Positions 4,559 to 53,130 of a stretch of DNA of 64,000 bases are shown here, one piece after another (within the stretch, counting starts at the first letter, position 1; every line of letters starts with the position of its first letter). The translations under genes were made by a program, and so were the position numbers. The stretch lies in assembly GCA_030606485.1 (NCBI GenBank), contig JAUWGH010000002.1, forward strand, positions 134,192 through 198,191, read 5' to 3'. Source of the stretch: Promethearchaeota archaeon. GTDB taxonomy: Archaea; Asgardarchaeota; Lokiarchaeia; Sigyniarchaeales; SOKP01. The notes below the pieces were generated by a model. It ran no database searches. It was not told the DNA's origin and saw only the letters and a program-made list of their open reading frames with translations.

Positions 4559-5239
4559 TTAAATAATATTATAAGATGTTATCCAAAAATAGGTTAAAAA
4601 TTCTACATTAAGATTTTTTATATTATCTCCAAGAATTGGAGCAAATTCATTTTTTTTAGGGAAATTTTTTACAATTTCATATTTTCTTCCATCTTCTAAA
4701 GCCCTTATTTGATATGTATTCCCTTCATTATCTATTCTTGATATAGGAGTACTACTATCTTTGGTATATAGGTTATCAATAAATATCACTAAGGCATCTG
4801 ATTGAAGTTTCGAGTGAAAAATATTAAGAAATGTTTTTAACTTAGATTTTAAAATATGCGACCACCAGAAACCACTAAAACCAGCAGAAAATTTCCCCTT
4901 AATTTTACTTAAATAAAATGAATCATCTTGAATAAAGGAAACATTATTTGAAAAAAAAACTTTTTTTTTAGCAATTTTAAGAACTTCTTGATTAATATCA
5001 GTTGCAGTAACTAAATTTGCAATTGATGCAATAGTTTTTGTCCAATAACCGGTTCCACAGGCAATTTCAAGAACATTATGTCCTTTAAGTAATTTTTTAA
5101 GAATAGAATGAAGTAAGGCTATATCTTCCTGTCGTTCAGGTCGTTGATAAGTTTTCTCATATTCAATCGCACGATCTGCATAATATTGAATGAGTTTCTT
5201 ATCTTGATTTTTTCTCACGAATCTTACCTTAAATGACAT
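4559..5239 (-). CDS. Class I SAM-dependent methyltransferase
   Basis: 226 aa with motif I VLEIACGTGYWT. Lies 3 nt downstream of the MttB-family gene. Confidence 0.8.
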   Translation of the reverse strand: MSFKVRFVRKNQDKKLIQYYADRAIEYEKTYQRPERQEDIALLHSILKKLLKGHNVLEIACGTGYWTKTIASIANLVTATDINQEVLKIAKKKVFFSNNVSFIQDDSFYLSKIKGKFSAGFSGFWWSHILKSKLKTFLNIFHSKLQSDALVIFIDNLYTKDSSTPISRIDNEGNTYQIRALEDGRKYEIVKNFPKKNEFAPILGDNIKNLNVEFLTYFWITSYNII

Positions 5240-5242
5240 AAT

Positions 5243-6670
5243 TTATTGCAAATATTTAGTAACTATTTTATTTAATTCTTTTGCAAGAATTTCATTGATT
5301 GGCTGTATTGGGGGCATATTTAATAATCTATCTGCCTCTTCACGCGCTCTTTTTCTTGCGGATTTGGAACCCAGTTTTCTCCATGAATCGCGGGTCTTTC
5401 TATCAATAATTGAACTTGGAAAAAATAATTCTTTTCTGAAAAGTTTTAAAGTAGATGGGTGGGATAATAGTTCTTCTTGCTCTCTAAAATCTTTTAGGAT
5501 ATCTAAAGCAAAAGGAGATCCATAATCCTCAATGCCTTGAAGGAATCTTTTAACCATTCCAATAATTTCGTTATCAATTAAAAGTTTTTCAATACTTTGT
5601 GTTGATTCAAAATCAAGCATTCCGGGACCTGAAATCATATTAATTCCGGCTAACCCGGCTAGAAGTGCTCCCATTCCTGCTTCAAAACCAGCTTGAGCAT
5701 CTGGAATTTTTGCATCACTTAGACTCATATAAGCGTGTGTTGGCATTTTTAAAAATTTTCCCATTTCTATGTCACCAATGTTTATCATCATAGTCTCTAT
5801 AGCTCCCATCGGTGTTGTACCATGTTTCATATCCATTACTGCCGGTGATCCACCCCATATTAATGGTGCTCCACGTTTTGCCAATTGAGCAATTACAACC
5901 CCAACAAGGGTTTCAGCACAATGTTGAGTAATTGACCCCAACAAGGTAATTGGAGCACTTGCACCAGCCAATGGCATTGAAACAAACTCAGATGGGATCA
6001 TACTTTTAGCGGCATCAATTACTGATTGACTAGTGAGATCTGACCACTTTAAAGGTGGGCTAGGGCAAGCATCAAATATTGCTAATGGTTTTCTCGCTAA
6101 ATCATCTTCAGATAAGCGGCAAGACAAAAGAATTTCCCGCATAATTGAAAAACTATCCTTGCGAAATGTTCCCGTTACAACAGGTTTATGACAATTAGAA
6201 AGTGATATAAATAGACGATGCCAATCTTGTGCATCTTTAGGAACATCTTGATAGATTAATGCAGTGCTTTGAGCTTCAATATATTTTAATTGCTCAACGA
6301 TTTTTGAAAATTTAATGAAATCATTCGAATTAGCTTCTCTAATTTCGCCTGTATTCTCATCTAAGATGAAAATTGCAGCGGATCCAGGATCAAAATGAAC
6401 TTGATCATTTTTCAATGAAATATGTTCCTTACCCTCTCGGTCAAATAAGGTTATTTCATTTGGAACCGATTTTAAACATTTATCGACTAAGTCAGATGGG
6501 ATGTAGAAGCGTTGTTCCTTATAATTAAGACCTTGTTGCGAAAACAAATCTATAGCTTCTTGATTTTCTATAAAAACTCCTTGAGTTTCCAGAATGATCT
6601 TAGCTTCATTAAAAATTAATTTCTTGTGTTCATTATCTAATATTTGAATCTTGGGTTTAATTATTGGCAT
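5243..6670 (-). CDS. MttB-superfamily (trimethylamine methyltransferase-like) corrinoid-dependent methyltransferase, non-pyrrolysine type
   Basis: 475 aa. Paralog of 8402..9841, with shared blocks such as PDAQAGFEAG/PDAQAGLECG and a C-terminal FRxELxFP. No internal stop codon. Confidence 0.8.
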   Translation of the reverse strand: MPIIKPKIQILDNEHKKLIFNEAKIILETQGVFIENQEAIDLFSQQGLNYKEQRFYIPSDLVDKCLKSVPNEITLFDREGKEHISLKNDQVHFDPGSAAIFILDENTGEIREANSNDFIKFSKIVEQLKYIEAQSTALIYQDVPKDAQDWHRLFISLSNCHKPVVTGTFRKDSFSIMREILLSCRLSEDDLARKPLAIFDACPSPPLKWSDLTSQSVIDAAKSMIPSEFVSMPLAGASAPITLLGSITQHCAETLVGVVIAQLAKRGAPLIWGGSPAVMDMKHGTTPMGAIETMMINIGDIEMGKFLKMPTHAYMSLSDAKIPDAQAGFEAGMGALLAGLAGINMISGPGMLDFESTQSIEKLLIDNEIIGMVKRFLQGIEDYGSPFALDILKDFREQEELLSHPSTLKLFRKELFFPSSIIDRKTRDSWRKLGSKSARKRAREEADRLLNMPPIQPINEILAKELNKIVTKYLQ

Positions 6671-6699
6671 TTTGTATTTTTTTCGATTAAATCATATAT

Positions 6700-7581
6700 T
6701 TATAATGAATAAATAATTTTACGGATTTCTTTAATTGTTTGAGGCGATGTTCCACAACATCCACCAACTATTTTTACTCCTAAATTAATCATATCGTGAA
6801 TATCTCGTGCAAAATCATTTGGTGGATATTCATAAAACGGTCTATAATTTTCATCAATTTTTGGTTGTCCTGCATTTGGTTTAGCTGAAAGTGGTTTTTT
6901 AGTTAATTTAACACTCTCTTCTATTAATCCAATCATTTCATTAGAATCAATTGTACAGTTTGATCCAATCACATCTACATTTTCCTGTTCCAAGATTTGA
7001 ATACATTTTTTAAGGGAATCACCCATTATCGTAAAATATCCCCTTGGAGTCTTTTTATATGTCATTGAGGCGATTATCGGCTTTTTAGAGGCTTCTTTCA
7101 CTGCCTTAATTGCTGTTTTCATTTCTTCAATATCTGAAATTGTTTCAATATGCCAGAGATCAACTCCATTTTCTAGTATTTTTACTTGATTAGCAAAACT
7201 TGCCTGCCATTGTTCAATAGTAATATTTCCTACAGGAGGTCTGAATTCACCGCTTGGTCCTATATCTCCTACAATTAAACTGTTTGGAGGACATATTTTC
7301 TTTATATTTTCAAGTGCTTTTTGATTAATTTCCTCTATTCGATCTTCAAGTTTATATTTTTTTAAATTTAATGAAGATGACCCAAAAGTGCATGTTTGGC
7401 ACATATCTGACCCGACATCATAGTATGATTTATGTATATCAGAAATAATATCAGGTTTCTCAATATTCAATAGATCAGGAATCTTACCAGGTTCGATTCC
7501 TCGTTTAAATATTTCTGTACCCATAGCTCCATCAAATAAAATTATCTTGGAATCATCTTTTAACCAATCATGGAATAACAT
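6700..7581 (-). CDS. Zinc-dependent thiol (homocysteine-type) S-methyltransferase domain protein (MetH N-terminal/BHMT fold)
   Basis: 293 aa with N-terminal FDGAMGTE and zinc-ligand motifs GSNCT and GGCCGTSP, characteristic of the homocysteine S-methyltransferase family. Confidence 0.8.
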   Translation of the reverse strand: MLFHDWLKDDSKIILFDGAMGTEIFKRGIEPGKIPDLLNIEKPDIISDIHKSYYDVGSDMCQTCTFGSSSLNLKKYKLEDRIEEINQKALENIKKICPPNSLIVGDIGPSGEFRPPVGNITIEQWQASFANQVKILENGVDLWHIETISDIEEMKTAIKAVKEASKKPIIASMTYKKTPRGYFTIMGDSLKKCIQILEQENVDVIGSNCTIDSNEMIGLIEESVKLTKKPLSAKPNAGQPKIDENYRPFYEYPPNDFARDIHDMINLGVKIVGGCCGTSPQTIKEIRKIIYSL

Positions 7582-7611
7582 TTTTAATAAACTTCCTCCA
7601 AAGTATAAATT

Positions 7612-8259
7612 CTATATATGCAGGAGAGATTTAGCTAGTTCAACTGCTTCTACAGCATTTTCAGCATAACCATCTGCACCGCATTCTTCAACCCATTTAC
7701 TCGTAACCGGAGCACCACCAAGGATTACCTTAAATTTATTGCTAATTCCCTTTTTTTTCAAGATTTCTATAACTTTTTTCTGTCCTAACATAGTAGTTGT
7801 TAACAGGGCTGATACTCCGATAATATCAACATTTTTTTCAATTGCTTCATCAATAATCTTTTCAGCGGGAACATCGGCACCCAAATCATAAACCTCAAAA
7901 CCATACGCTCTTAACATTGTTGCAACAATTGTTTTCCCGATTGAGTGTATATCACCTTCAATAGTTGCTATTACCACTTTTCCTAATGTTTTTCGCTCTA
8001 TGCCACCCTGTAGATGAGGTATGAGAAGATCCAAGCAATCTTGCATGATTTTTGCCCCTCTCATCAACTCTGGAAGGAAAAATTCACCCGCATCCCATAA
8101 TTCTCCTACACGCCGAATTCCTGCTCCAAATCCTTCTTCAATAACATTAAGTATATTAAAATTTTCATCAATTGCTTTATTGGCTAATTCTCTGGCTTTA
8201 TCTTCATTCAAATTAACGATTGCATCAGAAATTTCACCATATAAGTTTTCTTGAGACAT
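7612..8259 (-). CDS. Corrinoid (B12-binding) methyl-carrier protein, MttC/MtgC-like
   Basis: 215 aa. DxHxxG motif (EGDIHSIGKT), SALLTTTM and GGAPV blocks of the cobalamin-binding Rossmann domain, preceded by a helical cap domain. Confidence 0.9.
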   Translation of the reverse strand: MSQENLYGEISDAIVNLNEDKARELANKAIDENFNILNVIEEGFGAGIRRVGELWDAGEFFLPELMRGAKIMQDCLDLLIPHLQGGIERKTLGKVVIATIEGDIHSIGKTIVATMLRAYGFEVYDLGADVPAEKIIDEAIEKNVDIIGVSALLTTTMLGQKKVIEILKKKGISNKFKVILGGAPVTSKWVEECGADGYAENAVEAVELAKSLLHI

Positions 8260-8401
8260 ATTATTCTCTCTCCTATTCTAAAAAATTATCCAAATATATT
8301 AAAACAAATAAACTAATTTATTATAGATTTTCTATTATTGGTTATTTAAAACTTACAAAAATAAAGATTACTTAGATAAATTGAAAAAATTTTTGATTAT
8401 T

Positions 8402-9841
8402 TCAAGCCGATGATGTAAGATTTCGTTGTGCTTTCTTAACTATCTCTTCCAATTCTTTAGTCACATCATCTGCAAGTAGCTCGGGTTTATGGGTTGCCAA
8501 GATTTCCTCTTTGCGTTTACGGCAGCGTTTTTCCATACTAGAAGCGCCTTTATTATTCCACGTATCGTAATATTCCCTGTCTAAGAGAGTCGGGAACCAT
8601 AATTCATTTCTGAAATGTTCAACTGTATGTTGTTTATCAAGAAAAGAACCTTTGGGGCCAACTTTTTCAATAATATCAATAGCAAATGCCTCTTCTTCAA
8701 ACGTTACTTCTCTATTAATACTTTCTACATATGATATGATTTCTGATTGCATAACAAGAAAATCTAAAGAACTTGCTTGATCCACACCACAGATCCCCAT
8801 ATGGCCAAAAATATCAGCTCCAGCTGCAGTTCCCAATGCCAGAGTTAAACCACACTCGAGACCAGCTTGGGCATCTGGTCGTTTAGAATCAGTTAGCCCT
8901 ACATTAATATAGACAGGCAAATTATAATACTTTCCCATCTGAGTCATTGCGACACTGAATATAGCCTGTTCAGGACCACTGAAAATTAATTGCGTGGTTT
9001 TCATATCAAAAGCATGGCATATCCCACCGTAGCATACCGGTATTCCTTCGCGTATGAGTTGAGTAATACATATTCCAGCTAAAATTTCAGCGTTTTCCTG
9101 AGCTAATGTTCCTGCAATTGTAGCAGGCGCAGATAATCCCATTTGAGCCATGGGTCCAATTGAAACCGGCATATTAAGTCGAGCAGTTTCAAATAGTAGG
9201 TCAATTCCGTTAAATGGAAAGGACAGAGGACTTACCGGTTCAAGTAAGGGATGAAACATTGGTAATTTCTGGGCTTTTTTCTCATCTCCTCTAAGGGCGA
9301 TAATAATATCTACTATAAATTTTGCTGAAGCTCTATCATGGAACCAAAATATAATCGGTTTAGTAGTATTTTTAATAGTTTCAAACGCCACTGCTACACA
9401 TCGCCATTCCACTGGAAGTTCATGTGGGTCTGCCATGGCTCCCGGTATGGTAATTTTTTCTAAAGCATCGGCAAATTTAACAGCAGTTGTGACATCATTA
9501 AGAGACGAATATCTTCGTTTATTATCAATATTATCAATCCATAGTGCTTGACCGCCTGAAGTGTTGTAATTACGTTTCCCAACACCAAATTCAGCCTTTT
9601 TCGAAAGGTTTCGTCCATAAAATGTGAAATTTTTTCCCGCTTTTGAAAGCAGCTCCATTACTAAATCATCTGAAATTCTTACTCGTTTATCTTTCATATC
9701 CACATTCGCCCCTCTCTCGGCGAAACGTGATAAAATCTCATCATGCGGGATAATTACACCAATCCTTTCAAGTATTTCAAGAGATGTTTGGTGTATTTTA
9801 TTAATCTGCTGTTCTGTAAGCACTTTTGCGATCATAAACAA
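8402..9841 (-). CDS. MttB-superfamily corrinoid-dependent methyltransferase, non-pyrrolysine type (second copy)
   Basis: 479 aa, paralog of 5243..6670, uninterrupted frame. The track start is TTG; the ATG at 9835 (MIAKV) is the likelier start. Confidence 0.8.
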   Translation of the reverse strand: MFMIAKVLTEQQINKIHQTSLEILERIGVIIPHDEILSRFAERGANVDMKDKRVRISDDLVMELLSKAGKNFTFYGRNLSKKAEFGVGKRNYNTSGGQALWIDNIDNKRRYSSLNDVTTAVKFADALEKITIPGAMADPHELPVEWRCVAVAFETIKNTTKPIIFWFHDRASAKFIVDIIIALRGDEKKAQKLPMFHPLLEPVSPLSFPFNGIDLLFETARLNMPVSIGPMAQMGLSAPATIAGTLAQENAEILAGICITQLIREGIPVCYGGICHAFDMKTTQLIFSGPEQAIFSVAMTQMGKYYNLPVYINVGLTDSKRPDAQAGLECGLTLALGTAAGADIFGHMGICGVDQASSLDFLVMQSEIISYVESINREVTFEEEAFAIDIIEKVGPKGSFLDKQHTVEHFRNELWFPTLLDREYYDTWNNKGASSMEKRCRKRKEEILATHKPELLADDVTKELEEIVKKAQRNLTSSA

Positions 9842-9984
9842 TTGAACAACTATATTTAACTTTATTTAAAACTTTTTATGGAAATTTTATTAGGTTTCCT
9901 AATTGGAATATTTTAGGATAAAAATCAAGTTTATTTGAAAACTAAAAAAAAAAAAATAATTTGAGATAAAATAAACTGTTGTAA

Positions 9985-11427
9985 TTAAAAGCCGAATTCC
10001 TTCAATTGTTTTCTAATTTCAGATGTTTTTTCAGGTGTTAGAGGGTATTTTTTCCAAAATATAATTGTACAAATCAATAAAATAATGGCTGGAATCACAC
10101 TCATATGTAGGCGAATCCCCAATTGTGCTGAAGCTGATTGAGTAGTTGCTCCTTCTACAAATCCAGTAAGTATATGAATAAATGCAAATATTGTAATTTG
10201 AGCTCCTCGAGAAAGCCGCGATAGGAAAGCTACAACACCTACAGTTGCACCCCTTACATCTGAACGAGTTAATACCACTCTTTCATCAAGCACGTCCGAA
10301 AAATAAATTGTAGTTAATACCCAAAGGTTTCCCATTGTGAAACCCAAAATAAGCATGTAAATCATCGAATCAATTACACCTATATAAAAAGTGGTCAAAA
10401 TACACCCCATAACTAGTAAAAACCCTCCAATCACTGCAGTTTGCTTATTATTTTCATTTTTTTTAGCGAACCAAGTCCAGAACGGAACCGATATCAGCGC
10501 TCCAGTAAGAAAGGTTGCGAATAGAAGGATCATATTAAGTTCTATAGGTAGATCACTCACCAAAACAAAATTCGCTGCATATGGAATAGAAGCTGTCAAA
10601 GAACCGGTAATTATCATAAATCCAAAGAATAGTATGACATAATATACAAAGCTTTTTTGTTTTAAGGTGGACTTCAATGCTTCTATGAAACTTTGACGTT
10701 TTTTCTCGCTTACATAATAGCGGTCAATGAGTTCTTTGTTCTCTTTCATTCCAAATAGACATAATATTGAAACGGGTACAATCGTACCAATAATAATCCA
10801 AACCATTGCGATATAGGCGGCTTGATTGTTTATACCTCCAAAAAGTCCAAGTAATATTGGTGGGACGATATTAGCGACCGGTAATGCCATCATAGAAAGA
10901 GGAGTTCCCCAGCCTCTGGCCTTCCTACGTGCTGGACCAGTACGAAATTTGTCAGGAAAAAGAGCATCAACATTTACAAAACAAAGTGTTGTTAAAGAAT
11001 CAAATAAGCAGGTTGTAAATATGATCCACCCAAAAAATGGCATTGGATTCGTTGCAGCATCACCAGCTGGTGGCATAAATACAAGGGCCAAGACAAAGTT
11101 GGCGGGTAAGATGCCTATAATTATCCAAATAAATCTTTTACCATACTTTCTTGTGAATCTAGTAACACGATCAGTGAGGTGTCCTATAAGTGGATCATTA
11201 ATAGCATCCCATAATGTAAAGATGAGCATCGCCAAAAAGATTAATACCGTGTCTAAACCAACCACGACTTCATAAAAGAAAAAAATGTATGCATTAAAAA
11301 CCCCATATGCTAACCCCATCCAAAAGCCAGCACTGCCATAGGAAATCGTATTGAGAGTTGATGGGATTTTATAGGCTCCTTCAGCAACAGGTTTCTCCTT
11401 TGCGTTATTTTTTTTCACTTCATTCAT
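9985..11427 (-). CDS. MFS transporter of the glycoside-pentoside-hexuronide (GPH/MFS_2) type
   Basis: 480 aa, about 12 TM segments, GPH signature DAINDPLIGHLTDR. Confidence 0.75.
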   Translation of the reverse strand: MNEVKKNNAKEKPVAEGAYKIPSTLNTISYGSAGFWMGLAYGVFNAYIFFFYEVVVGLDTVLIFLAMLIFTLWDAINDPLIGHLTDRVTRFTRKYGKRFIWIIIGILPANFVLALVFMPPAGDAATNPMPFFGWIIFTTCLFDSLTTLCFVNVDALFPDKFRTGPARRKARGWGTPLSMMALPVANIVPPILLGLFGGINNQAAYIAMVWIIIGTIVPVSILCLFGMKENKELIDRYYVSEKKRQSFIEALKSTLKQKSFVYYVILFFGFMIITGSLTASIPYAANFVLVSDLPIELNMILLFATFLTGALISVPFWTWFAKKNENNKQTAVIGGFLLVMGCILTTFYIGVIDSMIYMLILGFTMGNLWVLTTIYFSDVLDERVVLTRSDVRGATVGVVAFLSRLSRGAQITIFAFIHILTGFVEGATTQSASAQLGIRLHMSVIPAIILLICTIIFWKKYPLTPEKTSEIRKQLKEFGF

Positions 11428-12138: not shown

Positions 12139-13086
12139 TTGAAAATAATCTCCGTGAAAAGCTTTTCAATTTCGAATTTAATTCCTGAATTTTTAATTTC
12201 TAAAGAAGTAGAAGAAGGAAATTCTAAATCAACGGTTAAAGCGTATGAATATGATCTAAAAAAGCTTATAGAGATTATTGGAGATTCTAACATAGAACTT
12301 TTAACGACGACAAAAATTAGAATTTTTATAAAATTCTTAAAAGATAAAAATTATTCAAAAAAGGGTATTGCAAGAAAAATCGCTACGTTGCGTTCATTTT
12401 TAAAATTTTTAGTTAAAAATGAGTTTATATCAAAAAATCCGATGGATAAGATTTCGAGCCCTAAGATAAGAATGGAGGAGAGCCTTCCCAAATACTTAGA
12501 GCTTGACGAAATCGGAAAAATTCTTGAAATGATAAAAGATAAAAACATATTTAATTCAAAAAAAAGCCAAAGATTTTATCTTCTAGTAAGATTATTATAC
12601 GCGACAATGGCTCGAGTGAGTGAAATTTCAAATATTAAAATAAAAGATGTAAATTTTCAAGAAGGTTTTATTCATCTTAGGGGAAAGGGTAATAAAGAAA
12701 GAATTGTTCCCGTTGATAAGAATTCCCTAATGGTTATTAAGAATTATTTGGAAAATCGATTTTCTTATTCTGAAGAAGACTACTTACTTGTTAACACTCG
12801 AAATTTAAAACTTTCTCCTCGTGTCATTCAGGAAGATATAAAGGTTATAAAAGAAAAATGTGGCTTTTCTCAATCAAAACAAATTACTCCACATATTTTT
12901 CGCCATACTGGAGCCACCCATTTAAGAAGAGCTGGGATGGACATTAGTGAATTACAAGATATATTAGGACACTCAAGTTCAAATACAACCAGAATTTATG
13001 CAAAGAATGATATCAGAAATTTAAAAAAGTCTTACGATGGAATGCATCCTCTAAGTTTAAAAAAAGACTTAAGAATCAACAATTAA
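12139..13086 (+). CDS. Tyrosine recombinase, XerA/XerC/D-like
   Basis: 315 aa. N-terminal SAM-like core-binding domain, then catalytic residues in ARVSEIS (R), HIFRHTGATHL (HxxR) and LGHSSSNTTRIYA (H...Y). TTG start. Confidence 0.9.
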   Translation: MKIISVKSFSISNLIPEFLISKEVEEGNSKSTVKAYEYDLKKLIEIIGDSNIELLTTTKIRIFIKFLKDKNYSKKGIARKIATLRSFLKFLVKNEFISKNPMDKISSPKIRMEESLPKYLELDEIGKILEMIKDKNIFNSKKSQRFYLLVRLLYATMARVSEISNIKIKDVNFQEGFIHLRGKGNKERIVPVDKNSLMVIKNYLENRFSYSEEDYLLVNTRNLKLSPRVIQEDIKVIKEKCGFSQSKQITPHIFRHTGATHLRRAGMDISELQDILGHSSSNTTRIYAKNDIRNLKKSYDGMHPLSLKKDLRINN

Positions 13087-14286
13087 TTTTTTTTCTAAAA
13101 TTTCTACCAAATATTCTTTCAATTTTTCTGCAGGAACGTCAAGTAAAGTTATTTTCAAATGTCTACCGCGAGATTCTTCATCAATCCTTATCGAATCTGC
13201 CAGTAAAATTTTTAAAGTATTAAGTTGCCGAATATATTTTCTAAAAGACATTTTAACGTGAGGAACAATTTCATAAGTTTCACAAATGACTTTGTAATCT
13301 TCGTATGCATCATCAATTGTTGTAAATGATTTTTGATTATTCAATAAAGCTCTTACAACGGCATACAAGGATAAAAGTTCTTGATCTTTTAATCGATCAA
13401 TAATATCAGCTCTAAATTCAGGATATGCAACTTCTGCAGCAGCATTTCGAATAATTTCAGCAGAGGACTCATCTAATCCCTCTTTATCCAAGTATTGCCC
13501 ACTCAATCTTAAGATTTCAATACCATGCCTCATATTTTTTGTATCTTCAACAATTTTCGCAATTAACTCGAGATTATCTTCATTCATAACGCCGTCTTTA
13601 AAAGCCAAATCTACTCGATAATTTAAGATTTCTTTTGCATCATCGAGATTATATGGTTTTAATTTAATTTTTTTATTAATCCGGGATAATAACCTTTCTG
13701 ATTCTATTCGAATCCAATCATGTTTTCGCGAAATTAACAATAATGACATTCTTACATTATGATGCCCGAAAGTTTCGGCAGTATCTAGTAAAGCCCATAT
13801 ATCATTTTTTGGAATTAAATGAATCTCATCTAAGATTAATAGAATATATCCATTATCATTTTTTACTTTAGTAATTATTTGTTTCATTGCCTCATCATCA
13901 GAAAAACCTCTTCCTGAGCCTTGACAATACTTTCCCAATAAAGTTCGAATAATTTTACTTTTTGTTCTAAAATTAACGCAATCAAAATGCTCAATGAATA
14001 AGTTAATACCCTTTTCAATTGCTGTTTCTCGAAAATTTCTCCCAAAAAACTTTGCGGAAACGGTTTTCCCAACACCACCTTTACCAATTAATAAACAATT
14101 ACTAGAAAATCTTCCCTTTCCTTCAATTATACCCCTAAAATTGTGAATAAGCTCTTTGATTATATCATCTCGGCAGTATAATTTTTTCGGTACATAACTT
14201 AAATTAAGAGAACTAGAATTTCGAAATACAGATCTTTTACTTAATTCTTTTCGAAAATTTTCCTTATCCATATTTTTAGGGACCAA
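13069..14286 (-). CDS. cdc6: Orc1/Cdc6 AAA+ replication initiator homolog
   Basis: 405 aa. Walker A LLIGKGGVGKTVSA, Walker B ILLILDEIH, C-terminal winged helix. The ATG at 14271 (MDKENF) is the likelier start. The 3' end overlaps the recombinase 3' end by 18 nt. Confidence 0.9.
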   Translation of the reverse strand: MVPKNMDKENFRKELSKRSVFRNSSSLNLSYVPKKLYCRDDIIKELIHNFRGIIEGKGRFSSNCLLIGKGGVGKTVSAKFFGRNFRETAIEKGINLFIEHFDCVNFRTKSKIIRTLLGKYCQGSGRGFSDDEAMKQIITKVKNDNGYILLILDEIHLIPKNDIWALLDTAETFGHHNVRMSLLLISRKHDWIRIESERLLSRINKKIKLKPYNLDDAKEILNYRVDLAFKDGVMNEDNLELIAKIVEDTKNMRHGIEILRLSGQYLDKEGLDESSAEIIRNAAAEVAYPEFRADIIDRLKDQELLSLYAVVRALLNNQKSFTTIDDAYEDYKVICETYEIVPHVKMSFRKYIRQLNTLKILLADSIRIDEESRGRHLKITLLDVPAEKLKEYLVEILEKKLIVDS

Positions 14287-14518
14287 AAATGTATAGGACT
14301 ATTGCTCAGTTTATCCTTAATAAATTAAAATTTGCTATTTGATAAATAATTTATCTATTATTTAAAGTTAAAACATCTAAAAAAATAAGAAATTATATGA
14401 TCTTCGATATCTTTTTTTAAACTTTTAAATTATTTAAATACATTTAATAAAATAGAAAGTACTAGAATTTAAAAAAATAAAACAATAAAATCGATTAATT
14501 TCCATTATTTTTTAAAAA

Positions 14519-15427
14519 ATGAAAGTAAGTTTAATCGGACTTAATAACTGTGGTAAAACAAGTATCTGCTCGGTTGCATTTGGTCAAAAAAATGCTGAAG
14601 ATACTCAATCCTTAAATCCTACAATATTTTATGAGGTTAGGCATTATCCATTTTTAGGATTTCAAATTGGAATCTTCGATTTTGGTGGTCAAGAAGATCA
14701 TAGAAAGGAATATTTAGAAAAACCTGAACCCTTTGCGGGAACAGATATTCTTATTCCAGTTGTTGATTTACACGACCCTAAGAATTTTGAAAATGCCAAA
14801 AAATATTTTAAAGAAATTTTAGATATTTTTAATCAAAGTAATAAAAAACCAAAGATTTTTTTACTCCTTCACAAATGTGATACAAAAAATTATCAGAAAG
14901 AGTTAATAGACGCAAATATTAGACAAGCAAGAAATATCTTTTTAGATCTTTTCGTAGAATTTGATTTTAATTTCATATTTACAAGCATTTTTGAACAAAA
15001 TGATTTGAGAAAAATATTTCGAGACATTTTACTCTCTTCCCATGCGAATTTAAAGATAAATATCCAAAAAATGGAAAAAGATCTTCAAGAAATTAAAACA
15101 AACATAATTATTACGGATATATTAGGAAATATATTAATTCATAATGTTCAAAATGTAGGTAGTGGTTTTATTTTAAGGCAAGATTTACGAGATTTTCTAA
15201 ATTCTTGTAATAATATCCGAGAAAAAATATTTACTTCAGATTCTGCTAACTTTAAAGGTAAAAATGACGATGGAAAAGAAATTGAGATTTATATATTTAA
15301 ATACATAATTTCTGTAATCATAATGAAATCAAGAGACTTAGATGTGAATTCACATGATAAAGTTGCAATTTTATTAAATAATGTTAGATTATTAGCAGAT
15401 TTAATAGTCAGTACAAATTTTAACTAA
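14519..15427 (+). CDS. Rag/Gtr-like small GTPase with C-terminal roadblock-like domain
   Basis: 302 aa. G1 GLNNCGKTS, G3 DFGGQE, and G4 HKCD, the HKxD variant typical of RagA/Gtr1. FTSIFEQNDLRKIFRDIL parallels the RagA TSIWDETLYKAWSSIV block. About 130 aa of C-terminal alpha/beta domain follow. Confidence 0.7.
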   Translation: MKVSLIGLNNCGKTSICSVAFGQKNAEDTQSLNPTIFYEVRHYPFLGFQIGIFDFGGQEDHRKEYLEKPEPFAGTDILIPVVDLHDPKNFENAKKYFKEILDIFNQSNKKPKIFLLLHKCDTKNYQKELIDANIRQARNIFLDLFVEFDFNFIFTSIFEQNDLRKIFRDILLSSHANLKINIQKMEKDLQEIKTNIIITDILGNILIHNVQNVGSGFILRQDLRDFLNSCNNIREKIFTSDSANFKGKNDDGKEIEIYIFKYIISVIIMKSRDLDVNSHDKVAILLNNVRLLADLIVSTNFN

Positions 15428-15506
15428 AATTAGACTTTAATTATTTTAATACTTTTTCTGAAGGAGATTAAGACATAACCATAGTATATTTAATTGTGAA
15501 TATCAT

Positions 15507-15728
15507 TTACTTATTCTTGTCTGATGATGAATACCAATCAAGCCAATCCTTTTTTCGACTTTTTTTCTTTTCATAATTGTCTGATTCATCAAAATTTGTT
15601 TCTCGAATCTTTTTCCACATTCGATCTAACTCAGTTCTTGTCACAGTTAGACCACAACTTAAACATACCACCATTTTTAATTTTGAATTCCATTCCATCA
15701 TAGCCGCACATTCAGGACAACGTGCCAT
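15507..15728 (-). CDS. Small zinc-ribbon protein
   Basis: 73 aa with CPEC...CLSC four-cysteine ribbon and a basic/acidic tail. Confidence 0.5.
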   Translation of the reverse strand: MARCPECAAMMEWNSKLKMVVCLSCGLTVTRTELDRMWKKIRETNFDESDNYEKKKSRKKDWLDWYSSSDKNK

Positions 15729-16067
15729 AATTACAACGCTCTAATTTTTAAATTCTTTTTTATAAATAAAAAATACTATTCCAAAAAAATTTTGCTATTT
15801 TTATTCGGTTTAATTTCCTAATAATGGAAGAAAATTATAAAATCAATTGATTAAAATATTATTTAACTGTAAATAATAAATTTTAATTTGCTGGTTTAAG
15901 AAATATTGAAGTATATTAGATTATTAATAATTTATATGAAAAAGGAAAAGGATACTATAGAGGATAAATAAGAATTCTGCAATAAAGTAATCTCGAAATG
16001 ACAAATAAATTATAGTTCTAAGTGAAAAAAACTGTTAAATAAGGATTTAAAAGATTATATTGATTTA

Positions 16068-27060: not shown

Positions 27061-28134
27061 ATGAGATTAGGTCAAAAAGAAAAACTGTTTTTAGATTTAA
27101 TGAGAAATTTTATCGAAGCAATAAATGGAATAGAAGCTATTTGGATGTATGATCGAGAAGGTCTTTTGATTAGCAAATATGCTCGAGCAGAATTATCTAA
27201 AGATGGATTAAATGAATATGAAAGAGAAGAAATTTATGGCGCTTTTGCTAGTATATTCGATCCTTTATTAAAAAAAATTAATTCTGAATATAAAATTGGA
27301 GAATTGGGTTCAATCACATTTGAAACTCAAGATCATCATATAATTTTTATAGAAGCAGGCCCAAAAGCTATAGTTCTCATCATAACAATGTATGATTTGG
27401 AAATAAGTTCAATCTTACCATATTGTTATTTATTTGTTGAAAAGGTTGTCCAGATAATAGAAGAGAGTTTTGATTTAAAATATAATACATTGATGATACC
27501 AAAATTAATAATTGGTAATTCCTTTGATAATACTTTAAAAAGTTCCTTTGCAAAAACGGAAAATAATGAAATATATATAGGTAGAAAAAAAGAAGTTAAC
27601 TTTTTTAAACTTATTATTATCGGGGATGCTGCAGTTGGAAAGACGAGTATGATTTCTCGTTTTGTAAAAGGGAAGTTTTCAACGGATTACAGACCCACTT
27701 TAGGGATTTCCATAACAACTATGCGATTTAGCATTCAAGGTTTTGAAGATTCTGTAGTGCGTTTTTTGATTTTTGATTTAGCTGGTCAAGAATTTTTCAA
27801 ACGTGTTAGACGTATGTATTATACAGGAGCACAAGCAGTTTTTGTAGTATATGATATAACAAGAAGAGAAACATTTGAGGGAGCAGACTTTTGGTTTGAA
27901 GATGCTAAAAAAGAATTGGGAGATATACCTTTTGTATTAATTGGAAATAAAATCGACTTAGAAAATGAAAGGCAAATATCAACCGAAGAAGGAATGGAAA
28001 AAGCGAAGAATTTTAGATGCACATTCGTTGAGACTTCTGTTAAGACTAATGTAAATGTTCAAGATACATTTAAAATTTTAGGAATTGGAATGTTTTTTAG
28101 AAAAATTGAAGATTTAGATGTTCCTAAATCTTAA
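27061..28134 (+). CDS. Roadblock/LC7 (MglB-like) domain fused to a Rab/Ras-like small GTPase
   Basis: 357 aa. The N-terminal ~135 aa have a Roadblock-like pattern (IEAIWMYDREGLLIS...HIIFIEAGPKAIVLII). The C-terminal GTPase has G1 GDAAVGKTS, G3 DLAGQE, G4 GNKIDL and G5 ETSVKT. Confidence 0.75.
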   Translation: MRLGQKEKLFLDLMRNFIEAINGIEAIWMYDREGLLISKYARAELSKDGLNEYEREEIYGAFASIFDPLLKKINSEYKIGELGSITFETQDHHIIFIEAGPKAIVLIITMYDLEISSILPYCYLFVEKVVQIIEESFDLKYNTLMIPKLIIGNSFDNTLKSSFAKTENNEIYIGRKKEVNFFKLIIIGDAAVGKTSMISRFVKGKFSTDYRPTLGISITTMRFSIQGFEDSVVRFLIFDLAGQEFFKRVRRMYYTGAQAVFVVYDITRRETFEGADFWFEDAKKELGDIPFVLIGNKIDLENERQISTEEGMEKAKNFRCTFVETSVKTNVNVQDTFKILGIGMFFRKIEDLDVPKS

Positions 28135-34785: not shown

Positions 34786-37290
34786 ATGAGTAAAATTAAT
34801 GAAAAATTAGAAGTTCAAAAACAAGGACCAAAGTTTCCCGTCGCGGAATCTCATGATTTATCACCAAGATCAAAATGGCTTAGGGAATATTATTTTAAAG
34901 GAGTCAAAAGAGAATGGAACAATGAATATACACCTTTTACAACCGGTACTGATTGGGATATAATTTTTTATGAAGGAGATTTCTTTATTGTCCCTGAGAT
35001 GTATCTTTTTATGGGTATCAAAGATATGGGACCATTTGCTTTTTCTTTTAGATCTAAGGCATTTCCTGTTAAATTACCTGATAATTTCTGGAAAAAATCA
35101 TTACCAGAACGTAGAGCTTTATTTTTTGAAGAAATAATGTTAAATTACATGCCTCAAGAGATTATTTCAGAAAATGATTTAATAGCAGGAGGAAGATTTA
35201 ACACTCAATTAAGTAAATGCTTCAATGAAAAAGAAGCAAAAATATTTTGGAAACAAAATTTAAAAAATAGAAACGCTGTTTTTAAATTTCATAAAAATGG
35301 CTTTGGGAATTGTGGAGCCACGGGAGGGCATATTATTGCCGATTATGAAACCGTTGTCAATAAAGGATTTAAATACATTTATGAAATTATCAAAAAAAAT
35401 TATGAAAAATTAAGTGAAAAAGAAAAAAAAGGTCCAAAGGGTAAAGAACTTAGGGCAATGATGAAATCAGCTGAAATTCCAAGAAAATTGGCTAAAAAAT
35501 ATGCTGAGGAATGTAGAAGATTAAAAAATGAGGCATCAACTCCCGAACGTACTGAAGAACTTGAACAAATGGCAAAAAACTTAGAAATAGTTCCATGGGA
35601 ACCTGCTGAAACTTTCTGGCAGGGTATTCAATCTCTATGGCTTACACATATGTTGATAATGGCTGAGGAATCTTATCCCGGACCAGGAGTTTCTTTTGGA
35701 AGAACAGACCTACACTTATGGCCTTTATATAAAAAAGATGTGATTGATGAAAAAAGCATAACAAAAGATTTCGCTAAAGAGATTTTAGGGAGTTTTTGGT
35801 TTCATTGTAACACCGTATATGACGCTCAAATAAAGGTCGGAGGGAATCAAGGAATCAATTCTGGTTTCGGGCAGTTAATAACCTTATCTGGATGTGGAGC
35901 ACATGGAGAGGATTTATCAAATGAATTGACATATACAATATTAGAAGTTATAGATGAATGGAGCCCTATTTTGGAACCCAAACCAAATATTCGATTACAT
36001 CGAAATACTCCTGATAAATTACTTGATATTATTGTTGATATGATTACAAGCGCTCAAGGAGCTCCGTTTTTATTAAATTTCGATGAACGAAGTATTGCTG
36101 GAATGATTGTGGAAGGCATTCCTAAAGAGAAAGCATGGGATTATGCTTGTGTTGGTTGTCTAGAGAATACTATGCAAGGAAATGACCGCTCAGGCACAGT
36201 TAATTGCAATCCAAATTTAGCTAAAAGCATAGAATTAACTCTATGGAACGGAAAAAATATGCCTGATAAAAATGATACATCGAAATCAAAAGAACAATTT
36301 GGTCCAAAAACTGGAGATCCAGAAATTTTTGAGACATGGGAAGATTTTTGGAACACATGGGTTGAACAGATGAAATTTCTTATAAAATATACCGTTGATG
36401 TATATAATTTAGCGGAAGAACTCCGTGGAAAATATCTCCCAACGCCATATTTATCAACTATCGTCAGAGGATGTGCAGAAAAGGGATTGGACGTTAGACA
36501 AGGCGGTCCAGAATTGAGATTTATAACAATTGAAGGTGTTGGATATGCAACTACAGTAGATTCTTTATTAGCAATAAAGAAATATGTTTATGAAGACAAA
36601 AAATATACCATTGCTCTAGTTAAAAAGGCTTTAATGGAAGATTTTCAAGGCAAAGATAATGCTATAATGCAAACTTTATTTGTGAATAAAGCACCTAAAT
36701 TTGGGGTTGATAATGATGAGTTTGATGAATTAGGTCGAATGGTAATGAAAATTTGGTCCGATGAATGCTGGAAATATGAAACTCCAACTAATTTTCAATT
36801 CCGCGGCGGAATGCTTTCATGGAATTACTGGGCTGGGACGGATGCCGCAAATACTATCGCTACTCCAAACGGTAGGAATAAAGGAAGATTCTTATCAAAT
36901 GCGATTTGTCCTACAAATGGAGCGGATATAAAAGGTCCAACGGCGGTAACTAATTCGGTAGGAAAAGTTTTAGGTGGTAAGACTGAGGATGGAGAATATA
37001 AAAATTATTTACCTAATGGAGCAAGTCATATCATATCGTTTAATCCCAGTATCTTACGAGATCCTGAACATAAAAGTAAATTTAAAGCTTATTTACGAGG
37101 ATATATTGAAAATGGTGGTACAGCTTTGCAAATAAACATGATAGATGCTGAAATGTTAAAAGATGCACAAAAACATCCTCAGAATTACAAAAATTTGCTT
37201 GTAAGAGTCACAGGTTATAACGCCTACTTTCATGCGATTGGAAGGGAACTTCAAGATGAGATAATTGCTAGGGAGTCTCATCAAATGTAA
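34786..37290 (+). CDS. Glycyl radical enzyme of the PFL2/glycerol-dehydratase-like (1,2-eliminase) group, substrate unknown
   Basis: 834 aa. C-terminal glycyl-radical motif RVTGYNAYF. Cys loop ACVGCLEN (GCxE, as in the dehydratase/lyase GREs rather than the CC pair of PflB). Strong SD (AAGGAG) 8 nt upstream of the ATG. Confidence 0.9.
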   Translation: MSKINEKLEVQKQGPKFPVAESHDLSPRSKWLREYYFKGVKREWNNEYTPFTTGTDWDIIFYEGDFFIVPEMYLFMGIKDMGPFAFSFRSKAFPVKLPDNFWKKSLPERRALFFEEIMLNYMPQEIISENDLIAGGRFNTQLSKCFNEKEAKIFWKQNLKNRNAVFKFHKNGFGNCGATGGHIIADYETVVNKGFKYIYEIIKKNYEKLSEKEKKGPKGKELRAMMKSAEIPRKLAKKYAEECRRLKNEASTPERTEELEQMAKNLEIVPWEPAETFWQGIQSLWLTHMLIMAEESYPGPGVSFGRTDLHLWPLYKKDVIDEKSITKDFAKEILGSFWFHCNTVYDAQIKVGGNQGINSGFGQLITLSGCGAHGEDLSNELTYTILEVIDEWSPILEPKPNIRLHRNTPDKLLDIIVDMITSAQGAPFLLNFDERSIAGMIVEGIPKEKAWDYACVGCLENTMQGNDRSGTVNCNPNLAKSIELTLWNGKNMPDKNDTSKSKEQFGPKTGDPEIFETWEDFWNTWVEQMKFLIKYTVDVYNLAEELRGKYLPTPYLSTIVRGCAEKGLDVRQGGPELRFITIEGVGYATTVDSLLAIKKYVYEDKKYTIALVKKALMEDFQGKDNAIMQTLFVNKAPKFGVDNDEFDELGRMVMKIWSDECWKYETPTNFQFRGGMLSWNYWAGTDAANTIATPNGRNKGRFLSNAICPTNGADIKGPTAVTNSVGKVLGGKTEDGEYKNYLPNGASHIISFNPSILRDPEHKSKFKAYLRGYIENGGTALQINMIDAEMLKDAQKHPQNYKNLLVRVTGYNAYFHAIGRELQDEIIARESHQM

Positions 37291-37339
37291 AAACATATGG
37301 ATTTCGATAAATAAAATAAAAAAAGAGTTGAAAAATAAA

Positions 37340-38224
37340 ATGATTAAAAAAAAAGGATTAACAGAATGGTATCCGGAATTTTCCGAGGAAGCAATTACTT
37401 TTACAGAGCCAGAAGTTATGGTAAAATTAGTTTCAACGATTGATCCCCGTGGTTGGCCTCATATAACTCTTATTTCTAGTAATCGAGCAAAAAATAAAAA
37501 TCAGGTGGTTTGGGGTCAATTTGCTGAAGGATTAAGCAAGAAGTATGTCGAAAATAATCCAAAACAAGGAATATTTTGGATGACGGCAGAGATGCCATTT
37601 AAAATTCTTCAAGCAAAAGTAAAGCTGAATTTTACGAAAACAGAGGGAGAAGATATCGAATATTTTAATAAATTAGATCTTATGAGATATAATGCATATC
37701 TTAGTATTTGGAAAATTTTTTATAATGATGTTATAGCAGTATCTCCAATAAGGAAATTATCTTTGGGGGGAATTGTTAAAGGAATTATATTAGATATGAT
37801 TGGAAAAGGCGCAGCAAAAACAAAACTGTCTGAAAAACGTTTAAATGTTCTTGGGTATAAATTGTTTAAAGGTCCAATAAATCCTAAATTTATTTCTTAT
37901 ATTGACCCTTCCGATGGCTATCCGATTATTATTCCGTGTATTCAATTACAAGCTGCTGATCATAATCGGTTAATCTTTCCACTTACAGTTTTAAAAGAAG
38001 ATTTAAAGAAAATTCCACATAATTCCAAAATCGCTGTTTTTGGAATGAATACAGATTTAGTTAGTCAATTAGTTAATGGAACATTTCTAGGGTTTAAAAA
38101 ATTTAGGGGAATAAAGTTTGGCGTAGTTGAAATTGAAGAGATTTATAATAGTAGTCCCCCTTTAATAGGAAAAATATATCCGGAAATAGAAACACGACCC
38201 AAAGTTACAAATTTTCAATTATAA
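37340..38224 (+). CDS. Tandem split-beta-barrel (pyridoxamine-5'-phosphate-oxidase-like) protein
   Basis: About 294 aa from the ATG at 37340 (the track start at 37265 overlaps the GRE). Two similar halves each carry a ...IDPxxGxPxI... strand pattern (VSTIDPRGWPHITLIS; ISYIDPSDGYPIIIPC), as in PNPOx-like FMN-binding barrels. Confidence 0.45.
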   Translation: MIKKKGLTEWYPEFSEEAITFTEPEVMVKLVSTIDPRGWPHITLISSNRAKNKNQVVWGQFAEGLSKKYVENNPKQGIFWMTAEMPFKILQAKVKLNFTKTEGEDIEYFNKLDLMRYNAYLSIWKIFYNDVIAVSPIRKLSLGGIVKGIILDMIGKGAAKTKLSEKRLNVLGYKLFKGPINPKFISYIDPSDGYPIIIPCIQLQAADHNRLIFPLTVLKEDLKKIPHNSKIAVFGMNTDLVSQLVNGTFLGFKKFRGIKFGVVEIEEIYNSSPPLIGKIYPEIETRPKVTNFQL

Positions 38225-38492
38225 TTATCTTTTTTTTCTTATCTTTAGTTTCAATAAAAATATTAACATTTAGAATCTAATTTTTCATTTTTTTAAATAA
38301 TTAATTGAAGGAAATTGATTTTCTAAGAGGAATTAAAAAATTCAATATTAAGAGTTTTTGATTTATTATTGGTAAAATTTACTGAATTCTTATAGAAACA
38401 ATACCTATTTAAATATTAAGCGGTTTAAATATAAACTGTTTATTTAAGAAATATTAAAAAATTATAAAAGAAAAAATGAGGTAAAATTTAAA

Positions 38493-38855
38493 ATGTCAAG
38501 CAATCAACTCGAATTTTTTGCAAAAGTGAAGAAATTAGCAGAAGAAAATGAGGAATTAAAAGAAGAATTAGAGGATCTTGATGAAATTAGAGCTCAAAAC
38601 ATAATTACCGATGCAAATTTTAAATTTTGGATCAAACTTGGAGAAGGGAAGTTTGATTATGGCGAAGGAGAGATAGAAAATCCTTCATTTACAATGTCTT
38701 GTACTGCAGCTATTATGACGGGTATAGGAACGGGAGAGGTTGACGCTACTTCAGCTTATATGGCAGGAGACTTAGTTATAGAAGGAAATCTACAAGATGC
38801 AATAGCATATGGTGAAATTACTGGAGTCGCCAGAGATATTTTGGAAGAAGAATAA
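38493..38855 (+). CDS. SCP2 (sterol-carrier-protein-2)-like small protein
   Basis: 120 aa. An acidic N-terminal helix, then FKFWIKLGEG...TSAYMAGDLVIEGNLQDAIAY, matching the SCP2 C-terminal AFMxGKLKIxGNmxxAmKL pattern. Confidence 0.55.
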   Translation: MSSNQLEFFAKVKKLAEENEELKEELEDLDEIRAQNIITDANFKFWIKLGEGKFDYGEGEIENPSFTMSCTAAIMTGIGTGEVDATSAYMAGDLVIEGNLQDAIAYGEITGVARDILEEE

Positions 38856-38980
38856 GATAATCCCAAAAAATAAATGATTTATTCTAATTTTTTTTTTTAA
38901 CTCTTTTTAGAATAATAAAACAAACTTTATTTTTATAATATTTTTCATTATTTATCCATTATAAAACAATTTCTCTTAAA

Positions 38981-53025: not shown

Positions 53026-53130
53026 GGGAAGGTAGTCTAGCTTGGTATGATTCTATTAAGCTCTCAACTTCATAGCGTTCAATCTTGGTTCGGAACCAAG
53101 GGATCGTGAGTTCAAATCTCACCCTTCCCA
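53026..53130 (+). tRNA. tRNA-Pro (anticodon CGG) carrying a 31-nt intron between D-arm and anticodon stem
   Basis: Acceptor GGGAAGG/CCTTCCC with discriminator A. D-arm GTCT-AGCTTGGTA-TGAT. Anticodon arm CTTGG-TTCGGAA-CCAAG (53084-53100). Variable GGATC. T-arm GTGAG-TTCAAAT-CTCAC. No encoded CCA, and a T-run follows. Caveat: position 37 is A, not the G usual for tRNA-Pro. Confidence 0.75.
53053..53083 (+). other. Putative tRNA intron (non-canonical position ~26/27)
   Basis: 31 extra nt between the D-arm and anticodon stem. Both junctions lie in a repeated TCT (53052-53054 and 53083-53085), so the exact cut is ambiguous by up to 2-3 nt. An internal 4-bp helix CTAT/ATAG (53053-56 / 53072-75) and pairing of 53048-50 with 53079-81 suggest a relaxed bulge-helix-bulge. 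Confidence 0.55.

Follow-up and report, generated by a model that had tools for sequence, protein, structure and literature searches.

A conserved corrinoid protein, homocysteine methyltransferase and MttB gene triad of Asgard archaea as a candidate split cobalamin-dependent methionine synthase

Gene clusters that combine a non-pyrrolysine MttB homolog, a homocysteine S-methyltransferase and a corrinoid protein have been described in Electryoneota and diverse bacteria, together with the hypothesis of a novel corrinoid-dependent synthesis of methionine from a methyl donor left unidentified (Williams et al. 2022, PMC9324843). Here we describe a locus with the same three core families, and the same proposed function, in an archaeon. 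The DNA analysed, a stretch of 64,000 nucleotides which we call the window, comes from Promethearchaeota archaeon (Asgardarchaeota; Lokiarchaeia; Sigyniarchaeales; GenBank assembly GCA_030606485.1, contig JAUWGH010000002.1, positions 134,192 to 198,191). It contains a corrinoid methyl-transfer locus of six genes transcribed in one direction, all on the minus strand: those for a corrinoid protein, a homocysteine methyltransferase (HcyMT) and an MttB-like protein (MttB1), which form a triad conserved among Asgard archaea, and those for a second MttB-like protein (MttB2), an MFS transporter and an S-adenosylmethionine (SAM)-dependent methyltransferase. The concept is already in print as a bacterial hypothesis, while its archaeal, Asgard-wide version is new in the literature searched. 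No report was found there of a link between Asgard MttB proteins and a homocysteine methyltransferase, and Asgard MttB-like and MtbC-like genes appear only beside mtrH (PMC11291895).

The bacterial clusters are the closest relatives of the Asgard triad. Their HcyMTs are sister to the Asgard clade and their MttB proteins (KSB1, Glassbacteria, Myxococcales, Chlorobiaceae) are 40-48% identical to MttB1 and carry the same active-site signature, described below, because of which we regard the two as the same kind of system. They differ in that the bacterial clusters possess an activation protein (PF02965) of their own and have another gene order, whereas the Asgard triad has no activation gene and a fixed order. 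The lineage to which the window belongs has, in addition, gained MttB2, the MFS transporter and the SAM methyltransferase. What is notable in the Asgard version is the fixed three-gene order, the unusually high conservation, the lack of a linked activation gene, and the optional second MttB with its transporter.

Genetic data on Ruegeria show that a single corrinoid protein serves both the demethylation of glycine betaine by MtgB and a split MetH whose homocysteine subunit is a protein of its own (Mausz et al. 2025, PMC12478193); a split MetH is also known from Phaeobacter inhibens (Price et al. 2018 and 2021). The MtgBCDE system of Ruegeria pomeroyi resembles the Asgard triad in having a separate corrinoid protein, a separate PF02574 subunit and MttB-family donor enzymes acting on one carrier, and in tying demethylation to methionine synthesis. 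Its genes are dispersed, however, and it cannot do without the pterin-binding MtgD; RamA and DUF1638 proteins have been linked to reactivation, the substrate of MtgB is glycine betaine, and the hosts are aerobic Proteobacteria. The Asgard triad, by contrast, is contiguous and has neither a pterin-binding protein nor RamA linked to it.

In classical MetH (Thermotoga maritima, PDB 1q7m/3bof) the homocysteine module is 35-36% identical to HcyMT, with the same Zn(Cys)3 site, and the cobalamin domain is related to the corrinoid protein; MetH is a single polypeptide with a methyl-tetrahydrofolate (methyl-THF) module and usually an activation module, whereas the triad lacks both and has a separate MttB-family protein instead. 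An MttB-superfamily enzyme with its cognate corrinoid protein is also found in MttB-MttC-MtbA of Methanosarcina, MtgB-MtgC-MtgA of Desulfitobacterium hafniense and MthB-MthC-MthA of Eubacterium limosum, but there the acceptor enzyme has a UroD fold (coenzyme M) or binds a pterin (THF) and is not a homocysteine module. BHMT and MmuM/HMT share the PF02574 TIM barrel and the zinc site with HcyMT, but transfer the methyl group directly from the donor with no corrinoid. Within the Asgard archaea, clusters of MttB-like, MtbC-like and MtrH genes in Atabeyarchaeia and Freyarchaeia (PMC11291895) likewise contain non-pyrrolysine MttBs and corrinoid proteins; these lie beside mtrH and are read as feeding tetrahydromethanopterin (H4MPT) or THF, with no mention of a homocysteine methyltransferase partner.

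Related loci were collected from a scan of one genome per species, and the six window proteins were mapped onto them by tblastn. The corrinoid, HcyMT and MttB1 genes stand in the same order and on the same strand in 38 of 41 Asgard-type loci; the remaining three run off the end of a contig, and counter-examples number zero. When neighbouring open reading frames (ORFs) were clustered, the corrinoid gene lay directly upstream of that for HcyMT at 41 of 42 Asgard loci. The gaps separating HcyMT from the corrinoid and MttB1 genes are about 20-60 nt in some 40 species belonging to several Asgard classes, an arrangement far beyond chance. Beyond the triad, this clustering gave no family reaching more than half of the loci, and the only families common to both Asgard subclades are the three of the triad. 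Since the MFS transporter, MttB2 and SAM methyltransferase genes accompany the triad only in close relatives, the conserved unit is the triad and not a six-gene operon. An EamA transporter, a divergently oriented 162-aa gene and a BcrAD_BadFG ATPase were considered as further conserved neighbours and set aside, being confined to one Asgard subclade. The sequence-only reading of the window, in which the locus was first remarked upon, had proposed that conservation of the neighbourhood be examined: the triad proves to be syntenic wherever the Asgard contig allows, and the bacterial relatives of HcyMT and MttB1 adjoin each other as well. In one locus (L086, Logan SRR14802574, 948-8428) the same partners are reordered as MttB1-corrinoid-HcyMT. 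The genes there run MFS transporter, MttB1 (69% identity), corrinoid protein (79%), HcyMT (65%), a 488-aa MTTB protein on the opposite strand and then MttB2 (73%), making three MttB paralogs in all.

An Asgard-type triad is also present on a contig labelled "Candidatus Nanopelagicaceae bacterium" (DATKTW010000084.1), where the corrinoid protein, HcyMT and MttB1 are 66, 67 and 74% identical to those of the window; this is probably a mis-binned Asgard contig.

HcyMT matches the S-methyl_trans family (PF02574) with 213 bits (E 9e-63). Its best match in the PDB is the homocysteine module of T. maritima MetH(1-566) (186 bits, E 7e-54), well ahead of other MetH entries (81-120 bits), BHMT (52-54 bits) and MmuM (50 bits). 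An AlphaFold (AF2) model of moderate quality (pLDDT 69, pTM 0.75) ranks them likewise in Foldseek, the top match being MetH with homocysteine (3bof; TMq 0.72, 35-36% identity), with BHMT and MmuM behind. The zinc cysteines, C209 in GSNC and C275/C276 in GGCCGT, and the motif E146-T-I-S-D150 common to MetH are invariant in 12 Asgard homologs. On sequence and modelled fold HcyMT is thus a MetH-type module, not a BHMT-like or MmuM-like one, and we propose that it functions as a methyl-corrinoid:homocysteine methyltransferase. The MetH N-terminal fold assigned to this 293-aa protein by eye is therefore borne out, and the protein lies nearest to MetH rather than grouping with the stand-alone S-methylmethionine or betaine:homocysteine enzymes, the outcome that had been named as fatal to the idea. 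The best 120 protein matches are all stand-alone, about 293 aa long and 65-96% identical, and come from Loki-, Thor-, Hermod-, Hod- and Odinarchaeota. Identity is at least 61% across the Asgard triads, then drops to 45% at a Heimdall locus and to 40% or less in bacteria. In a neighbour-joining tree the HcyMTs of the bacterial MttB-linked clusters branch as sister to those of the Asgard archaea and are separate from fused MetH.

The corrinoid protein passes the cut-off of TIGR02370 ("methyltransferase cognate corrinoid protein"; 224 bits, cut-off 215.3). It consists of a B12-binding_2 cap (PF02607) and a B12-binding Rossmann domain (PF02310), with the DxHxxG motif present as D103-I-H105-S-I-G108. 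Its best PDB match is MttC (7xcn_M, 166 bits), while the cobalamin domain of MetH scores 103 bits, and by sequence it is an MttC-like methyl carrier. All of the motifs that had been picked out by eye in this protein and in HcyMT are present, and the family assignments made at the same time agree with the Pfam and NCBIfam results.

Both MttB-like proteins belong to the MTTB family (PF06253, cut-off 25), MttB2 with 305 bits (E 7e-91) and MttB1 with 258 bits (E 2e-76), about 470 of 500 positions being covered. Their PDB matches are MttB and MtgB (176-243 bits). MttB2 is closest to MtgB (9yce, 243 bits, 32% identity), whereas MttB1 is about equidistant from pyrrolysine-containing MttB (187 bits, 30% identity) and MtgB (176 bits, 26% identity), and only 25% identical to MttB2. 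Among the Asgard triads the identity of MttB1 is 68-93%. The two ORFs are uninterrupted, with leucine at the pyrrolysine position of each (codon TTA in MttB1), and score 383 and 372 bits against the model for pyrrolysine-dependent MttB (TIGR02369), below its cut-off of 525. Rfam reports a PYLIS_3 element inside the MttB1 gene (5623-5721, minus strand; 48 bits, gathering score 38) and a weak one inside that for MttB2 (8790-8896, minus strand; 24.5 bits). Since neither gene contains a UAG and the UAG of the model is aligned to a leucine codon, the match reflects coding-sequence homology, and we reject it, and with it pyrrolysine in MttB1 or MttB2, as a false positive.

In MtgB the substrate is held by Y97 and F356 through cation-pi contacts and by R312 and H348, which bind the carboxylate; every characterised member retains R312, and all of them use acidic quaternary amines (Picking et al. 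2026, PMC13080624). The phosphocholine enzyme MthB conforms to the R312 pattern. The columns of Y97, R312, H348 and F356 read S, H, S/G and E in MttB1 and G, Y, H and D in MttB2, so that only H348 is kept, in MttB2; the R312 column is aligned without gaps, five residues ahead of the leucine equivalent to pyrrolysine. Where MttB uses pyrrolysine and MtgB-type enzymes keep R312, the window therefore has His (MttB1) and Tyr (MttB2). The signature S-[H/Q]-[L/I/V/M]-E, at the positions of Y97, R312, the pyrrolysine site and F356, is found in all Asgard MttB1 orthologs and in the bacterial HcyMT-adjacent MttBs, as well as in most 50%-cluster representatives that are at least 38% identical to MttB1. 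Because this signature is common to the Asgard orthologs and the bacterial HcyMT-linked MttBs, MttB1 belongs to a distinct clade without a characterised member. The quaternary-amine donors suggested by the sequence-only reading are made doubtful for both proteins by the missing arginine; the donor of MttB1 is probably not an acidic quaternary amine. Nor do we retain MttB2 as a glycine betaine enzyme, since, although nearest to MtgB by score, it is missing three of the four ligand residues. For MttB1 we propose the function of a donor:corrinoid methyltransferase.

Taken together, these data lead us to propose, with a probability of roughly 0.6, that the conserved triad is a split methionine synthase, dependent on cobalamin and encoded by three genes, in which an MttB-superfamily enzyme replaces the folate-binding module of MetH. 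The gene content, families, motifs, synteny and nearby absence of folate and activation modules are observed; the chemistry and the direction of transfer are inferred from homology, as follows. MttB1 would bind a small methyl donor and pass its methyl group to the Co(I) corrinoid of the MttC-like carrier. HcyMT would hold homocysteine as a zinc thiolate and take the methyl group from CH3-Co(III), yielding methionine and Co(I). In the lineage of the window, MttB2 and the MFS_2 importer could load this corrinoid protein with methyl groups of a further donor, and the occasional Co(II) would be re-reduced by a factor encoded elsewhere in the genome. The route from substrate methyl group through Co(I)-corrinoid to homocysteine had already been outlined for this locus, and it finds comparative support in the class of HcyMT, in the synteny and in the absence of a pterin module.

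That absence is worth describing. A full-length bacterial MetH (1188 aa) used as phmmer query matched only the HcyMT and corrinoid regions, in the window and at all Asgard loci, and thereby revealed no pterin-binding methyltransferase and no activation module, whether in the window itself or in the 8-10 kb around each of about 45 Asgard loci. Queries with activation proteins detected no MetH-type activation (PF02965) protein in the window or at any Asgard triad. A small activation protein of this kind, of 220-236 aa, is present in bacterial MttB-linked clusters (L049, L050 and L052). Scans of essentially all window ORFs of at least 100 aa with Pfam and NCBIfam confirmed the earlier statement that no RamA-type activase is visible in the window: no RamA or RACo protein was found, the sole match to TIGR04270 (28 bits, cut-off 500) being the ferredoxin part of a DUF362 protein. 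No RamA homolog occurs near any Asgard triad.

Two observations touch on these partners. On a 5.8-kb contig of a Heimdallarchaeota (L044, JAUWJS010000136.1) the segment 2332-4518 encodes a corrinoid protein, an HcyMT (45% identity) and a protein with a MetH-type activation domain; this contig has no MttB gene, and upstream of the three it encodes an APH/choline-kinase-like protein. In 11 loci of one Asgard subclade (L004, L007 and about nine more) a BcrAD_BadFG-type ATPase of 341 aa is encoded 4-8 kb upstream of HcyMT in the same direction, in some of them with a DUF2229 protein also upstream of the triad. ATPases of this family use ATP to drive electron transfer at low potential. They could conceivably take part in corrinoid reactivation, and the linkage may be plain lineage synteny.

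Several points weigh against the split methionine synthase. Its support is comparative throughout, the MttB1 clade has no characterised member, and the tree which joins the bacterial and Asgard HcyMTs was drawn without bootstraps. Unlike the bacterial clusters, the Asgard loci have no linked reductive or SAM-dependent reactivation component, and the module is to this extent incomplete as encoded. Furthermore, the precedent in Ruegeria sends the methyl group mainly by way of a pterin module, and the Asgard genomes might encode one elsewhere.

This last point leads to the main rival, another view of the same parts, which overlaps with our preferred explanation and which we consider unlikely: that the corrinoid protein mainly serves methylotrophic catabolism, that MttB1 and MttB2 load it and that an unlinked pterin methyltransferase, MtrH-like or MtgA-like, takes most of the methyl groups and hands them on to H4MPT or THF and into the Wood-Ljungdahl pathway, with HcyMT as a biosynthetic side branch. 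Corrinoid sharing of this type is seen in Ruegeria, where MtgC is common to MtgB, MtgD and MtgE from separate loci, and the MttB-like and MtbC-like genes next to mtrH in Atabeyarchaeia and Freyarchaeia have been interpreted as non-methanogenic methylotrophy (PMC11291895). Near the triads, though, the searches above produced no pterin-binding homolog, while HcyMT is the invariant partner of the corrinoid protein, with spacers of 30 nt. As methyl flux to homocysteine alone cannot sustain catabolism, the triad fits an anabolic module. Corrinoid methyl transfers are reversible in principle, and the PF02574 fold serves several methyl donors, as in BHMT and MmuM, so one might also suppose that the thiol methylated by the PF02574 protein is not homocysteine, or that this protein demethylates a methylthio compound (methionine, S-methylmethionine or the like) onto the corrinoid with the MttBs acting downstream; a bidirectional MtgD has indeed been proposed (PMC12478193). 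This strikes us as improbable to a much greater degree, given the invariance of all three zinc cysteines and of the E-T-x-S-D motif of the MetH module, the closeness of HcyMT (186 bits, 35-36% identity) to a MetH module crystallised with homocysteine, and the fact that every characterised MttB-family enzyme is a donor-side methyltransferase.

Still more remote is the idea that there is no coupling at all and that HcyMT is a corrinoid-independent, YitJ-like or MmuM-like methyltransferase using S-methylmethionine or SAM, situated by accident amid ordinary MttB and corrinoid genes. In NCBIfam the protein best matches the N-terminal half of PRK08645, a bifunctional protein of YitJ type, although at 237 bits it falls short of the cut-off of 453, and HcyMT is much nearer to MetH than to MmuM. 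Its position between the corrinoid and MttB1 genes in about 40 species, and beside the same partners when these are reordered in L086, argues against chance. In bacteria, the relatives of HcyMT are accompanied by a corrinoid protein and by an activation protein of the MetH type, partners which make sense only if these HcyMTs are cobalamin enzymes.

If the split methionine synthase is correct, many Asgard archaea would make or regenerate methionine, and hence SAM, straight from a methyl compound of the environment or of metabolism, without passing through methyl-THF or methyl-H4MPT. It would also give a biosynthetic role to the abundant non-pyrrolysine MttB homologs of marine sediments, which usually carry the annotation "trimethylamine methyltransferase" and are taken as markers of methylotrophy, and it would be a caution against scoring every mttB homolog of an Asgard metagenome as catabolic methylamine use. 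With MttB1 about 70-80% identical across Asgard classes, the compact three-protein system would be suited to heterologous reconstitution, and the triad is an attractive route to the first substrate of the MttB1 clade. A bolder version, which we put forward only tentatively and think unlikely as a whole, is that many Asgard archaea have in the triad their principal methionine synthase, possibly an ancestral one, that the MttB1 clade activates a non-acidic donor without pyrrolysine by means of its conserved His/Glu pocket, and that neither a MetH-type activation domain nor a linked RamA is needed. Candidate donors would then include simple methylamines, choline-type compounds and other methyl compounds abundant in sediments.

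Turning to the accessory genes, MttB2 lies beside the triad in L001, L002 and L006, the closest relatives of the window and the only loci in which both it and the MFS transporter accompany a triad in this arrangement, and, in another gene order, in L086. MttB2 orthologs are widespread in Asgard metagenomes (65-78% identity). In L087 and L088 the MttB2 ortholog adjoins an ortholog of the MFS transporter (67-70% identity) with no corrinoid gene close by, and L087 and the triad locus L020 are separate contigs of one metagenome-assembled genome. Because two independent arrangements place MttB2 by the triad, its use of the same corrinoid protein is supported, though not proven, and we infer that it is a second donor-specific methyltransferase charging the carrier of the triad. 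Eubacterium limosum offers a parallel, with several MttB homologs and one common carrier. MttB2 and the MFS transporter look like a second donor module which can be docked onto the triad.

The transporter matches MFS_2 (PF13347) with 153 bits (E 1e-44). Its description as GPH-type holds at the level of this family but not for TIGR00792 (GPH:cation symporter), for which it scores 107 bits against a cut-off of 231. The nearest solved relatives are weak matches, the lysophosphatidylcholine symporter MFSD2A (55 bits) and MelB (44 bits). It probably imports the substrate of MttB2, judging by the pairing of the genes. A glycerophosphodiesterase gene is found near the MttB2-MFS pair in L088 and this, with the likeness to MFSD2A and the missing arginine, is a faint hint of a choline-type substrate. 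A choline source within the window was also considered: a glycyl radical enzyme at 34.8 kb might have been a choline trimethylamine-lyase feeding the MttBs, but since it attains 310 bits against a cut-off of 1050 it is not CutC.

The SAM methyltransferase (Methyltransf_25, E 7.5e-11; best PDB match 3ou2, 62 bits) is present, among the related loci, only in L006 and contigs of the same organism, and in the close relative L001 a PIN/MazE pair stands in its place. It is a lineage-specific passenger or accessory; as a conserved part of the triad it was rejected, not being kept with it across loci. An identity as CpaM (NF043040) was likewise discarded, the match (42 bits, cut-off 180) covering the generic SAM-binding region only. 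That it might take part in a SAM-dependent reactivation of the corrinoid is pure speculation.

The features of the locus are collected in Table 1. The six co-directional genes were all recovered as they had been called from the sequence, and the spacers, in order of transcription, are 143, 142, 30, 29 and 3 nt, the last three exactly as measured before. The G+C content is about 30%. MttB2 probably starts at the ATG at 9835, giving 477 aa as in other assemblies, rather than at the TTG at 9841 (479 aa). The TATA-box-like 12-mer AGTTTTAAATAA occurs twice in the window and nowhere else in it, the chance expectation being 0.19. By eye, the copy in front of the corrinoid gene is a possible, putative promoter of the corrinoid-HcyMT-MttB1-SAM methyltransferase unit, and the other suggests that MttB2 has a promoter of its own. 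Oligo-T runs follow the stop codons of the MFS transporter and MttB2 genes, and because of these runs and the two 12-mers the arrangement, judged by eye, suggests three transcription units.

Table 1. Genes and putative promoter elements of the corrinoid methyl-transfer locus, in window coordinates
Feature	Size	Position	Strand	Remarks
MFS_2 family transporter	480 aa	11427..9985	-	PF13347; accessory
MttB-like 2 (MttB2)	477-479 aa	9841..8402	-	PF06253; non-pyrrolysine paralog; accessory
Corrinoid (cobalamin-binding) protein	215 aa	8259..7612	-	PF02607 + PF02310; predicted methyl carrier; core of triad
HcyMT, predicted MetH-type homocysteine-binding zinc methyltransferase	293 aa	7581..6700	-	PF02574; core of triad
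MttB-like 1 (MttB1)	475 aa	6670..5243	-	PF06253; non-pyrrolysine; core of triad
Class I SAM-dependent methyltransferase	226 aa	5239..4559	-	Methyltransf_25; begins 3 nt past MttB1
TATA-box-like AGTTTTAAATAA	12-mer	8342..8353	-	5' of corrinoid gene
TATA-box-like AGTTTTAAATAA, second copy	12-mer	9862..9873	-	27 nt 5' of likely MttB2 start (9835)

Elsewhere in the window, an Orc1/Cdc6 gene (13069-14286, minus strand) adjoins a gene for a XerA-type recombinase (12139-13086, plus strand). The cumulative GC skew is lowest at about 14-16 kb, which is also where the genes change orientation, and a replication origin could lie near the Orc1/Cdc6 gene (12139-16000); nothing convincing in the way of origin-recognition-box repeats was seen in the AT-rich spacers near this gene. 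The glycyl radical enzyme mentioned above (834 aa) is encoded with a radical-SAM activase (328 aa) at 34786-39967 (plus strand), a 319-aa ORF and an ORF with an SCP2 domain lying between them, and is under all NCBIfam equivalog cut-offs (HypD-like, 368 of 1100 bits; sulfopropanediol dehydratase, 365 of 1000; CutC as above). Rfam calls a tRNA of 105 nt at 53026-53130 (plus strand; 42 bits) which ARAGORN misses, probably an intron-containing archaeal tRNA. A 1620-aa ORF (42980-47842, minus strand) has an N-terminal subtilase (S8) domain and a DUF4350 region and is followed by genes of an ABC-2 type transporter. Eukaryote-like small GTPases typical of Asgard archaea are represented by a Gtr1/RagA-like protein (14519-15427, plus strand) and a Roadblock/LC7-Ras/Roc fusion (27061-28134, plus strand).

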